This document shows, piece by piece, positions 2,925 to 6,978 of a DNA stretch of 20,634 nucleotides (position 1 is its first letter; each line of letters opens with the position of its first letter). Source of the stretch: Folioceros fuciformis (Eukaryota); NCBI GenBank assembly GCA_049999805.1, contig JBNGIO010005225.1, positions 62,001 to 82,634 of the forward strand, written 5' to 3'. Under the pieces are notes generated by a model. It searched no databases. It saw only the letters and a list, made by a program, of their open reading frames with translations, and was not told the DNA's origin. The position numbers were made by a program, and so were the translations under genes.

Positions 2925-5900
2925 ATGGCAGAGCAGGCGGCTCTCGAGGGTGTGCGGCAGTGCGTCACCGAGCTTGACAAGTACGTGTACTTGAGGAGGC
3001 TTCAGGAGAAGACGCCGTCGCTCTTCTACAAGGTGCTCATCAACAATGCGCAGGAGCTGCTGCCGATCGTGTACACGCCCGGGGTTGGGGCGGCGTGCCA
3101 GAACTACTCTCGGCTGCCCATCAAAACGCACGGATTGACCATCACGCAGGCGGACAAGGGCCGCATTCTTGACAAGCTCAGGACGGAGTGGCCGGAATCA
3201 ACGGTGCGGGTTGTGGTGGTGACGGATGGGGAGCGGATTTTGGGGCTCGGGGACCTGGGATTCAATGGCATGGGGATCAGCGAGGGCAAGATTTTGCTCT
3301 ACACTGTCATCGCCGGGGTGAACCCGTCTTTGTGCTTGCCTGTGTGCATCGACGTGGGGACCAACAACCAGGAGCTGTTGGACGATCCCACCTACAAGGG
3401 CGTGCGCCAGCGCAGGCTCAGAGGTCCCGAATACGACGAGCTCGTGGACGAGTTCATGAGCGCGTTGCGGGAGTGGCAGCCGCATTTGCTTCTGCAGTTT
3501 GAGGACTTCGGGAACACCAATGCCTTCCGGCTGCTCGACAAGTACGTGGATGTGCAGTGCTCCTTCAATGACGACATTCAGGGGACTGCCTGCATCTCCT
3601 TGGCGGGCCTGCTCTCTGCTCTGCGGATTACCGGCAAGTCGCTGGAGGAGCAGAAGATCGTATTTCTTGGTGCAGGAGAGGCTGGTACGGGAATTGGCCA
3701 GCTCATTGCCAAGGCTATGGTACATGAGTCTGCCACTGGTGGGCAGTTCACAGGTTCTGGGGCCCTGCCTGATTCCGAGGCCAACGGCTCAGCTAAGGCG
3801 CCGCTCACCTTGGAGGAGGCTCTGGGGAAGCTTTTCTACATTGATTCCAAGGGCTTGGTGTGCAAGACTCGGACTGATCTTCAGCATCATAAGTTGCCGT
3901 TCGCTCATGATGTACCCTTCCAACCCGACCTCCTTTCTGCAGGTCAATGACAGGTTTCTCTATACGAGTAGGGTCTCTGGTCGCTTGTGTTTGCTGCATG
4001 TCGGATGTTTGAGCCTTGCGAGCAGTTGTTGTTCCTGTGTCGCCTGCCCTGATGCATGCTGCACATGTGCTTTCGTTTGATTGCGTCTGCTATTTCCTGC
4101 CTTCTGCGTGGGCGGTCTGCACTCCTGTAGCTTACATGCCTGGCTGCCAACCGTTTTCCGTGTGCCACAGTGATCGAGTTGAAACCCACCATGCTGGTGG
4201 GTGTGTCGACAATTGCTGGCGCTTTCACTCAGGAGGTGGTTGAGGTGATGTCCAAGATCAATGAGCGGCCGATCATCTTCCCCCTCTCGAATCCCACATT
4301 GAAGTCCGAATGCACATATGAGGAGGCGTTCAAGTGGAGCAAGGGCAAGGTCGTGTTCGCAAGTGGCAGCCCTTTTCCAGGATTGAAGTCCGACGACGGC
4401 AAACTGTACTTCCCTGCCCAGGCAAACAACGCCTACATCTTTGGGCCCATTGGAATGGCGGCAGTCCTTACGAAGAGCAAGAAAATCACGGATGTCACCT
4501 TCCTCGAGGCTGCCAGAATTCTAGCGTCCCTGACTCCCCAGCACACCTTGGAATCTGGCATGCTATTCCCCACCTTCAGTGATATGAAGGTAACCAAAGC
4601 AAGTGTGTGTCACTGTTGTCTTTCATTGTGATTGCCATGGCTCGCTGACCTTGCTAGTGAGGTTCGCTTTGCAGCAACTGGCTCCTACACTGATTGCGGG
4701 AGTGGCAGAGTCTATGGTGAACGAAGGGATAGGAGAGAAACCTGCCGGTGTTCGAAATTGGGTTGATTATGTCAAGACGCAAATGTACCAGCCTAAAGTT
4801 TACGGTAGAGCATTGTCTGTGAAGGTGGCAACGGTACCCGTGCCCGAGGTGCAGCATGAAAATTTGCAGGAACTTATCATGATCCGACAGATGTATACCG
4901 ACATTCAGAGATACTTGTTCTTACGACATCTGCAAGTCAGCAGCACTCCCTTCTCGTGGTTGACGTTGCTTCCTAAGTTGTGATCGTTTGTTTGTTGACC
5001 TGATTCTCTGCTGGCATTGCAGGATAATTCGCCCAAGGTCTTCTGGAAGCTGATCATCGAAAATGCACAAGAACTGTTGCCTTACGTTTACACACCCACT
5101 GTCGGAGAAGCATGTGAGAAGTACAGTCGTCTTCCGATCAAGACACGAGGCTTGTATGTCGCCCCATCTGATTCGGGCAACATTCTGGAGAAGCTCAAAG
5201 CCTGGCGTTACCAGGACATTCAGGTCATCGTCATCACCGATGGGGAGCGGATTTTGGGGCTTGGAGGTACGGTCACAACCTGGTTTGTGTTTGTCGTACG
5301 TTTTTTATTTGAAACTTCACACACTAACTTGCTGTGTGTGTTTGTAGATCTTGGCGCTGGTGGCATGGGTATCAGTGAAGGCAAGATCATCCTTTACACA
5401 GTGATTGCTGGGGTTGATCCTGCCAAATGCTTGCCGGTGTGTCTCGATGTCGGCACGGAAAATAAAAGCCTTCTAGAAGACCCAGAGTACAAGGGGCTAA
5501 AGCAGCATCGTCTCCGCGGGCCTGCTTATGATTCTTTGGTAGACGAGTTCATGGGAGCCTTGCGTCAGTGGCGTCCCCACGTTCTCTTGCAGGTGCACCT
5601 CTTGCTTGAGGACAAATCAGACTGCGTGCTTGCGTTTATCCTGTGGTCCACGTTAACGTGGATCTTGGGTGTGCTCTGCAGTTTGAAGACTTCGGCAACC
5701 AGAACGCCTTCAGGCTACTAGAAAGGTACCAATCAAACCAATGCTGTTTCAACGACGATATTCAAGGCACTGCGTGCATCTGTCTTGCTGGCCTCTTATC
5801 CGCTCTGCGAGTCACTGGTAAGGCTCCTGGTCTGCTGTAGTGGGGGGACAAGGCATGTGCGGTGATACAAAAGGTTAATCGCCTCGCCCCTTTGCTCCTG

Positions 5901-6978
5901 CCGACAGGCGGGAAGTTGCAAGACCAGAGGATTATTTTCCTAGGTGCAGGAGAAGCCGGGACTGGCATCGGGAAACTCATCTCTCTCGCTGTCCACAAGC
6001 GGTGTGGTGTCCCGTATGAAGAAGCAGTCAAGGCCTGCTACTACATTGACTCCAAGGGTCTTGTCTGTCAATCCCGGAAGGACCTGCAGCACCACAAGCT
6101 TCTGTTCGCACACGATGTGCCCTTCCAGCCCGACTTGCTTTCCGCCGTGAAAGCTCTCAAGTAAGTACCAGCACCCCTTTGGTTGACCTTCCTTTCCCTC
6201 ACATTGAGAGGCTCTCAGAGAATCTGAACCCATGTCCCGTAAAAACTTGCAGGCCCACAATGCTGATTGGTGTCTCCACCATGACCGGTGCTTTCACGCA
6301 AGAGGTGCTGAGTGAGATGGCATCCATCAACGACCGTCCCATCATTTTCCCGCTTTCCAACCCCACATCCAAGTCGGAGTGCACATTCCAGGAGGCTTAC
6401 CGGTACACTTCCGGGCGTGTGGTGTTCGCCAGTGGAAGTCCGTTCCCCCCGTACACTACAAACGATGAGAGAACCCTGTTTCCCGCCCAAGCGAACAACG
6501 CTTACATATCCTTACAATTTCAATTCGCGTGGTTTTCCTGTCCCTTCTCCAGGTTGCTTTGTTGGGTCAAAGAGAGCTAACCCTTGACTGCGTAGAACAT
6601 TTTCGGGCCAATTGGCATGGCAGCGGTGCTGACGAAGTGTCAGTCCATCACGGACGATGTCTTCTTGGAGACCGCAGAGTCTCTGGCCCAGGAAACTCCG
6701 GAAGCCCGACTCGCTTCGGGCATGCTCTTCCCAGCCTTCTCGGACATGACGGTATGTGGCGCTGATTACTGTTTTGCCTTGCGTTGCTTTCTTCAATCTT
6801 GTGTCGCTCACCATCCGTGCTCGAAATTGGGTGTCGGCAGGAGGTGGGTCCAAAATTAATCGCTGACATCGCCAAATTCATTGTGCAAGTGGGTCTGGGA
6901 ACTCGTCCTGACCATATCACCGACTGGCTGGATTACGTCAAGGAGCAGATGTACAAAGTCGGATCGTCGTCGATTTGA
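2925..6978 (+). CDS. ME: Tandem two-module malic enzyme (NADP-ME-like), >=1039 aa. Exons 2925-3942, 4171-4589, 4675-4935, 5023-5266, 5348-5592, 5682-5817, 5908-6160, 6253-6505, 6599-6751, 6841-6978
   Basis: Both halves carry the family motifs [66 protein letters not shown] and QANNAYIF. Eight introns are GT-AG and one is AT-AC. All phases are compatible and the exons sum to 3120 nt, ending in TGA 6976-6978. The DSKG..R...HKxxFAH segment resembles NADP-preferring enzymes (cofactor is inferred). Confidence 0.93.
6506..6598 (+). other. U12-type (minor spliceosome) AT-AC intron, 93 nt
   Basis: 5' end ATATCCTT, branch-point CCCTTGAC at 6581-6588, 3' end AC at 6597-6598. Removal restores [12 protein letters not shown] exactly as in module 1; retention hits an in-frame TAA at 6578-6580. 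Confidence 0.93.

Follow-up and report, generated by a model that had tools for sequence, protein, structure and literature searches.

Two complete, diverged malic enzyme modules joined head to tail in one open reading frame of Folioceros fuciformis

Malic enzymes (MEs) are central to NADPH supply, to decarboxylation in C4 and crassulacean acid metabolism (CAM) and to lipid synthesis, and the way they behave varies with their oligomer state. Canonical MEs dependent on nicotinamide adenine dinucleotide phosphate (NADP-ME; human ME1, 7x11/3wja; the maize and sorghum enzymes, 5ou5/6c7n) are single-module subunits of ~550-640 amino acids (aa) that assemble non-covalently. Two diverged ME subunits, alpha and beta, likewise form a fixed pair in the plant mitochondrial enzyme that uses NAD (NAD-ME), but these are products of separate genes, associate non-covalently, carry a long N-terminus and belong to another ME lineage (passages of PMC5958461). 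The bacterial hybrid MaeB is an ME fused in one chain to a phosphotransacetylase-like domain (PMC7902834). The gene described here, from Folioceros fuciformis, differs from all of these, as a single chain carries two ME modules. It lies at 2925-6978 (plus strand) of a stretch of 20,634 nucleotides (nt), hereafter the window, which comprises positions 62,001 to 82,634 of the forward strand of contig JBNGIO010005225.1 (assembly GCA_049999805.1); all coordinates are those of the window.

The gene was modelled by reading 2400-7300, listing stop-to-stop frames, in which short introns separate ME-like plus-strand coding pieces, and assembling ten plus-strand exons by their coordinates. The resulting model has 10 exons, 9 introns and a coding sequence of 3120 nt, which encodes 1039 aa and ends in a single terminal stop. 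Two complete, diverged MEs are joined head to tail in this one open frame. A first-pass annotation of the same DNA had claimed as much, and its coordinates (2925, 4675-4935 and 6978) proved exact; the claim is now carried by the frame itself, by spliced contigs from four sequencing runs, by the open reading frame (ORF) of a transcript from a relative, P0001, and by full-length orthologues. Residues 1-519 (module 1, or N) and 520-1039 (module 2, or C) align at 63% identity (320/509, with 24 gap positions). The divergence of mitochondrial NAD-ME alpha and beta is similar.

The malic (PF00390) or the Malic_M (PF03949) domain was matched in 7/10 exon translations, each domain once per module, so the doubled Pfam signature looked for in one protein is present. 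No match was obtained for the 87-aa junction exon or for two exons of 45 aa. Against gathering cut-offs of 23.1 and 23.5 bits, module 1 scored 228 bits for malic and then 79 and 167 bits for Malic_M; across its exons, module 2 scored 86 and 94 bits for malic and 59, 117 and 31.5 bits for Malic_M. The malic match of exon 1 (E 8.6e-68) covers profile positions 2-181 of 182. Among PDB sequences the same exon matched human ME1, maize/sorghum NADP-ME and human ME2 with E between 1e-93 and 1e-87 (5.6e-93 included). The window's modules share both Pfam domains with canonical NADP-ME and ~50% identity in the catalytic core.

The motifs VYTP, EGK, FEDF, NDD and GAGEAG occur in both modules. We aligned 34 modules and single MEs and compared 19 catalytic and cofactor positions: Tyr112, Arg165, Lys183, Glu255, Asp256, Asp278, Asp279, the six of GAGEAG, Asp345, Ser346, Lys362, Asn421, Asn466 and Asn467, in a numbering that we take to be that of human ME2 and that fits the ME1 alignment at an offset of 10. 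Not one of the 19 differs between the window's two modules, and all 19 are also intact in both modules of two Calypogeia proteins, of Netrium and of Chara. The Tyr, Arg, Lys, Glu-Asp and Asp ligands, GAGEAG and Asn residues of canonical NADP-ME all align with the window modules, so that the malic enzyme Tyr, Lys, Arg, metal ligands and Asn set are present twice; in module 1 the Tyr50 codon is at 3072-3074 and the Lys122 codon at 3288-3290. The earlier proposal that both modules are catalytically complete is thus upheld as far as residues can tell.

Its companion, that the halves might differ in cofactor use, is not. Ser346 and Lys362 are, as we understand the mutational studies, the NADP determinants. 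Both modules read DSKGL and HHK(L)(P/L)F, which places Ser and Lys at the aligned positions 346 and 362, the register at 362 being that of a manual alignment. Because the NADP-determinant positions are the same in both modules, as are the other compared positions, a cofactor difference between the halves is without support.

The modules meet inside exon 3 (4675-4935, plus strand; 87 aa). The module 1 tail (4675-4794, starting QLAPTL) runs into a 29-aa linker (4795-4881) and then into the first helix of module 2 (4882-4935) with no stop, so the join does not depend on a speculative splice, as had been argued from the letters alone. No missed stop or indel of the kind that had been feared at this point shows in an independent contig, which matches the exon with 0 differences. 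The first stop past the junction (4981-4983) is reached only if intron 3 (4936-5022, GT-AG, 87 nt) is retained.

Logan contigs, which are short-read assemblies, from four public runs representing four organisms and four studies were compared with 2620-7400. Run X1 gave one contig of 4784 nt which matches the window without difference from 2696 to beyond 7400, with all nine introns removed; its joints agree with the model borders after allowed alignment shifts. Single contigs from X2 (3940 nt) and X7 (3412 nt) each span both modules and are 90-95% alike to the window, and in X3 both modules are covered by two contigs. The junction exon is covered in the four runs between spliced neighbours, and intron 3 is removed in 4/4 runs and retained in no contig. 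The removed introns argue that the contigs derive from RNA. Fusion is the economical reading, because a module 1 transcript ending in the linker would have no stop, intron 3 is never retained and the joined frame is conserved elsewhere. We regard the fused gene and its open frame as very probably real.

The junction exon was searched among longer proteins, and 5/5 matches contain the module 1 tail, the linker and module 2: the ORF of P0001 (765 aa, 82% identical), two Marchantia polymorpha models (614 and 577 aa), a Riccia sorocarpa model and a Logan protein. Those of them that are public models begin at a Met within module 1 and continue across the linker, which indicates that the locus has been split or truncated in annotation; Marchantia AXG93_392s1500 is the 614-aa model, and the Riccia sorocarpa locus is divided into R1sor_022529 and R1sor_022530. 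Further searches among longer proteins with P0001 and with exon 1, in each of which the best 8000 candidates by shared words were scored and 120 matches listed, returned full-length tandems of 981-1112 aa from Calypogeia fissa (1025 and 1015 aa), Netrium digitus (1037 aa), Chara braunii (CBR_g3078, 1025 aa), Riccia fluitans (981 aa) and Chlorokybus (1112 aa), together with Closterium proteins. Two malic and at least two Malic_M stretches were found in 8/12 proteins scanned (two from Calypogeia fissa, one each from Netrium, Chara, Riccia fluitans and Chlorokybus, and two metagenome proteins). The joined frame occurs in at least six other taxa. Among the matches listed, the only named land plants with the tandem were liverworts, with no moss, fern, lycophyte or seed-plant tandem, which suggests that it was lost in those lineages.

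Not every member is so well preserved. The N module of Chlorokybus P0161 is changed at 4/19 positions, including Asn421 to Ala, Asn467 to Asp and two more. Closterium P0166 and P0167 have two malic stretches and one Malic_M only, and the second module of the Closterium proteins considered (P0166, P0167, P0007) is 31-35% identical to the window modules. Since the tandem persists in Chlorokybus and Closterium with one decayed module, the pairing itself, beyond the doubled sites, appears to be conserved.

A search of a representative protein set with P0001 gave 11719 matches, of which 150 were listed, and 0/15 long ones scanned had two ME modules; this set missed the family because its liverwort and alga tandems are fragments. 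Two metagenome tandems, P0163 and P0164, were rejected as relatives. Their halves are near-identical, they have the canonical long N-terminus and they branch outside the green clade, for which reasons we regard them as independent recent events or artefacts. Other two-module ME predictions came from Closterium (P0270, 1805 aa), butterfly and nematode gene models, a protist transcript ORF and metagenome proteins; 5/5 of those scanned (P0270-P0273, P0275) have 2+2 domains, with halves 74-83% identical where measured. Predicted fusions of ME to thioredoxin, arginine-kinase-like, lactate/malate dehydrogenase, Ras and caspase domains were also seen (P0012, P0048, P0051, P0087, P0125).

The first-pass annotation had suggested a search of plant and algal proteins for double MEs and a tree of the separate halves. 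The search found orthologues, and the trees place N and C modules in separate clades. A quick tree of 49 rows of modules and single MEs recovered an N clade (window, near relative, Calypogeia, Riccia, Netrium) with a support of 97 in the Shimodaira-Hasegawa-like approximate likelihood ratio test (SH-aLRT) and a matching C clade, also at 97. A careful tree of 33 rows, from which 16 rows (fragments, long branches, near-duplicates and the two metagenome tandems) were left out, gave an N clade that includes Chara N (95/96) and a C clade (98/96) as sisters (97/95); Chara C fell just outside the C clade with weak support (82/70). The window modules have similar branch lengths in both trees. In approximately unbiased (AU) tests a single clade of N plus C was rejected for Netrium (p 0.002) and for the window (p 4e-50) and was not rejected for Chara (p 0.095), p-values that are weakened by the groups having been named after the quick tree was viewed. 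Since the N and C clades each hold the window, liverworts and Netrium, the duplication is older than the split between Zygnematophyceae and land plants. Chara and Chlorokybus may share the same duplication event.

The window falls in this streptophyte two-module orthogroup by its N module, by its C module and by an S-V-K...VPEV motif in the linker. The other streptophyte two-module proteins (Chara GBG68534.1/A0A388KEQ1, Calypogeia fissa, Riccia fluitans R1flu_025413, Netrium, Chlorokybus) have the orthologous architecture, the same clades and a related linker. The motif is conserved in 6/8 bryophyte rows, with a shorter form in Marchantia B and Riccia fluitans, and is recognisable in Netrium (…SVPPVPVPEVHEEEMTEL) and in Chara row P0006 (GRASTVKISSSVVPEV); the linker of Chara row P0159 has no clear similarity. 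This conservation supports a common origin of the tandem. A basophilic-kinase site at RALS in the linker was considered and set aside, as its register is not conserved in Netrium or Chara. Near the active site the N and C clades differ at fixed positions, for example LG(F/Y)NGMG against LGAGGMG, and the window N module there reads YTPGVGAAC. Module 1 also has a Gly/Ser-rich insertion of ~22 aa (~3729-3797) after the GAGEAG helix, which is common only to the two closest relatives P0001 and P0009 and is absent in Calypogeia, Riccia, Netrium and Chara; the window N module differs from those of other streptophyte tandems in this extra loop and in lacking a U12-type intron.

The canonical long N-terminus of animal ME1-3 and of plant NADP-ME and NAD-ME (~50-60 residues before the LxKY helix) is absent from both modules. 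Residue 14 of exon 1 aligns with human ME1 residue 66, so that ~50 N-terminal residues are missing, and module 2 begins directly after the linker, likewise without them. An in-frame TAG (2871-2873) lies upstream of the start and inside the transcribed leader, and the ATG at 2925 is the first thereafter; because this stop sits in leader covered by a contig, no hidden upstream coding exon can supply the canonical N-terminus. The active-site loop also differs, being ISEGK in the window modules and IPVGK in canonical ME. The nearest single-module relatives are chlorophyte proteins of the short-N subfamily, named cytosolic NADP malic enzyme by some sources (Coccomyxa subellipsoidea C-169 P0231, Chlorella, Chlamydomonas CHLRE_14g629750v5 P0264). 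They are 54-60% identical, share ISEGK or IAEGK and form sister groups of the streptophyte modules in the trees; unlike the window tandem they have one module of ~500-550 aa and no linker motif.

The first-pass annotation did not recall this architecture from earlier work. That much stands: no two-module ME was described in the main texts of the literature searched, which covered tandem, fused or duplicated ME and ME in bryophytes, liverworts, hornworts and streptophyte algae. The architecture is not unique to this organism, though, and sits unremarked in public protein sets, where the streptophyte proteins are named only 'Malic enzyme' (Chara braunii GBG68534.1), 'hypothetical' or 'unnamed'. 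In the text of the plant ME family phylogeny PMC5958461, Physcomitrella is the only bryophyte analysed, and Marchantia, tandem and fusion are not mentioned; its supplementary sequence lists might include such proteins without comment. The ME passages of PMC8566536 deal with expression only. As far as the literature searches reach, the architecture is conserved but undescribed, while the enzyme itself is well known.

We propose that the locus is an expressed gene of a bryophyte-like land plant, coding for a tandem of two complete ME subunits, ~115 kDa in all, which form an intramolecular hetero-pair, and give this whole explanation a probability of about 0.65. The two subunits would be joined by a flexible linker of ~25-30 aa and would both come from the green-lineage ME subfamily without the ~50 N-terminal residues of canonical MEs. 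[quoted passage not shown] Modules N and C would pair as the usual ME dimer inside one chain, giving a fixed 1:1 hetero-pair, and two chains would make up the usual tetramer-like particle. The product would be a cytosolic single-chain hetero-pair in which both NADP-MEs are active, with the conserved motif of the linker serving for regulation or docking. Because both halves look catalytically complete across old lineages, both sites may be argued to work in this plant. That the protein stays uncleaved, that each site is active, which cofactor is used, where the enzyme resides and that the modules pair within the chain are all things we infer, and the covalent pseudo-heterodimer of the first-pass annotation has the same standing.

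Several observations weigh against this proposal. No run is on record as RNA, the RNA origin being deduced from the removed introns, and a contig is an assembly, so that its reaching across two genes is no proof of a single molecule. That of X1 extends at least 884 nt past 7400 and into the start of a small ORF; on contig evidence alone, therefore, merged neighbouring transcripts are possible. The 1039-aa protein is known from the gene and the RNA-derived contigs alone. NADP dependence of both modules is a prediction from residue rules. In an AlphaFold2 model of the Calypogeia orthologue P0156 (14-row alignment; mean predicted local distance difference test, pLDDT, 79.5; predicted template modelling score, pTM, 0.54) each module is folded, but the two are not placed with confidence relative to each other. 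Finally, one module looks degenerate in Chlorokybus and in Closterium, from which it follows that two active sites are not universally required. A complex prediction for the Calypogeia N and C modules, made without a supplied alignment, scored 0.00 and is evidence neither way.

The decay of one module bears directly on the alternative that survives best, in which both modules fold and only one turns over substrate, the other serving as an allosteric or structural partner. A non-catalytic beta subunit has been reported for the NAD-ME of C4 Cleome (bioRxiv 10.1101/2021.06.16.448762). The pair has evidently survived decay of one site in Chlorokybus, whose N module lost two Asn and has two further changes, and the Closterium second module, at ~32% identity with one Malic_M stretch, points the same way, as do the fixed N-clade and C-clade differences near the active site. 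Against this, all 19 positions are intact in both modules of the window and of four other full-length orthologues after a divergence older than land plants, and the module branch lengths are alike. We consider a single working site unlikely in this plant.

A polyprotein would be made as one chain, cut in the linker and so release two ME subunits 1:1 for non-covalent assembly in the manner of NAD-ME alpha and beta. The linker is predicted to be disordered in the Calypogeia model (pLDDT ~30, residues 500-520), yet it has a motif retained between Chara and bryophytes, as would be expected of a processing site, and the intactness of the protein is a deduction only. Conserved disordered linkers are, however, also common in stable multidomain proteins. 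To our knowledge there is no protease site or processing system for such cytosolic plant enzymes, and the polyprotein genes for Euglena and dinoflagellate plastid proteins concern imported proteins with many repeats. We consider cleavage improbable.

Two proteins could also come from one locus, be it through an internal promoter, through alternative polyadenylation or because intron 3 is retained, with the full frame rarely translated. With intron 3 in place the frame would close 15 codons past RHLQ; a Met (ELIM) is also found immediately before module 2, and overlapping transcripts are compatible with assembled contigs. The intron is nevertheless removed in every run, a module 1 mRNA that ended in the linker would have no stop codon, and separate genes would not call for the conservation of linker and open frame that streptophytes show; this arrangement is very improbable. 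The last alternative, that assembly or gene modelling misjoined two tandem ME genes, could appeal to the assembly gap at 2506-2606 near the gene and to the split public annotations of relatives (Marchantia AXG93_392s1500; Riccia sorocarpa R1sor_022529 and R1sor_022530), but is extremely improbable, as the junction lies within one exon far from the gap and is matched without difference by an independent contig, the split models themselves start inside module 1 and read through the linker, and the joined frame recurs in at least six other taxa.

The tandem hetero-pair, if it exists as proposed, would mean that fixed 1:1 pairing of diverged subunits was selected, as a natural covalent pair would have been kept since before land plants. 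It would also be a plant ME lineage missing from the family phylogeny of PMC5958461. Since Marchantia has orthologues, the system would be a tractable one for studying cross-talk between the two sites of an ME dimer. A bolder version, which we offer only tentatively, is an ancient obligate single-chain heterodimer with non-equivalent sites coupled by a conserved disordered linker switch, one of the sites being adapted, for example, to a regulatory role or to the reverse or the oxaloacetate-decarboxylase reaction; it would predate land plants, occur in streptophyte algae and bryophytes and apparently be absent from the listed vascular-plant and moss proteins. If true, this would be an unrecognised plant ME class and a natural model for half-of-the-sites behaviour.

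Intron 8 (6506-6598, plus strand, 93 nt) is of the AT-AC, U12 type. Its 5' end is ATATCCTTAC, and the A of a branch motif CCTTGAC stands 12 nt ahead of the 3' end, with 11 bases between. The U12-type consensus has ATATCCTT at the 5' end and a branch site CCTTRAC that lies ~10-15 nt before the 3' end. Of the known intron classes, AT..AC alone fits this joint in the 4 runs within the shift that is allowed. The intron thus has AT...AC termini, both motifs and removal in the RNA-derived contigs of 4/4 runs, with the 93-nt joint seen in each. Exon 2 has no intron at the matching position. The N-module model P0172 of Riccia sorocarpa also reads AY-ISFTI at the equivalent site, for which reason the U12 intron seems, on sequence grounds, to be older than the module duplication and to have been lost from window module 1. 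The equivalent intron is mis-handled in other public models too: Marchantia P0002 reads AY-ISFLKH-IFGPIG, Riccia sorocarpa P0004 runs into the U12 intron and ends, and the Riccia fluitans model reads AYISIHIR. The AT-AC intron is one reason why public annotations split or truncate the double-ME gene, and a gene so treated is therefore undercounted by proteome-based surveys.

The remaining parts of the gene, all on the plus strand, are as follows. Exon 1 (2925-3942) carries the start codon and, of module 1, the whole malic N-terminal domain and the beginning of the NAD(P)-binding domain. Intron 1 (3943-4170, GT-AG, 228 nt), whose joint is present in 4/4 runs, separates it from exon 2 (4171-4589; Malic_M 4.8e-49), the remainder of that domain, which is followed by intron 2 (4590-4674, GT-AG, 85 nt). 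The malic domain of module 2 is divided between exon 4 (5023-5266; malic 4.4e-24), its first half, and exon 5 (5348-5592; malic 1.3e-26), its second half with GMGISEGK. Exon 6 (5682-5817) supplies the metal ligands in FEDFG and FNDDIQGT, exon 7 (5908-6160; Malic_M 4.5e-16) GAGEAG and YIDSKGL...HHKLLFAHD, exon 8 (6253-6505; Malic_M 8.6e-34) LSNPT ... QANNAY, exon 9 (6599-6751; Malic_M 1.5e-07) the stretch ending FSDMT, and exon 10 (6841-6978) the C-terminal helix and the stop TGA at 6976-6978. Introns 4 (5267-5347), 5 (5593-5681), 7 (6161-6252) and 9 (6752-6840) are spliced out in the 4 runs. Intron 6 (5818-5907) is removed in X1, and X2 and X7 join a few bases off where their sequence differs. 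Intron 2 agrees in position and phase with intron 9 of module 2. There are 2 introns in module 1 and 6 in module 2, in addition to intron 3 at the head of module 2. Only one intron position is shared exactly between the modules (after SDMK/SDMT, phase 0), and introns 1 and 7 are 4 codons apart with different phases.

A second leader exon (2696-2924) forms the 5' leader next to the start and is matched by the X1 contig (2696-3939, 0 differences). A leader exon upstream of it is situated ahead of or within the assembly gap, a run of N at 2506-2606 that falls within the 5' leader of the ME gene. Before 2696 the X1 contig has 129 loose letters, of which the first resemble 2490-2505 and those that follow enter the gap; the stretch 2490-2696 conceals either an intron of the leader or leader sequence that is missing. 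The 3' untranslated region (UTR) extends from 6979 at least to 7400 and is covered by a piece of the X1 contig (6840-7400) that continues beyond. The continuation is either a long 3' UTR or two neighbouring transcripts assembled together. The small ORF that it enters (7425-7685, plus strand; MGKSIRSKRLKR…) matches YBL028C_N weakly (E 3.5e-4; 21 bits against a cut-off of 28.2).

Two further genes follow on the plus strand. A pentatricopeptide repeat (PPR) protein with an E motif (13679-16466) is spread over two frames that overlap (13679-15526 and 15441-16466), a sign of a frameshift, an intron or a pseudogene. After it, a kinesin motor gene (17161-20632) reaches the end of the window.

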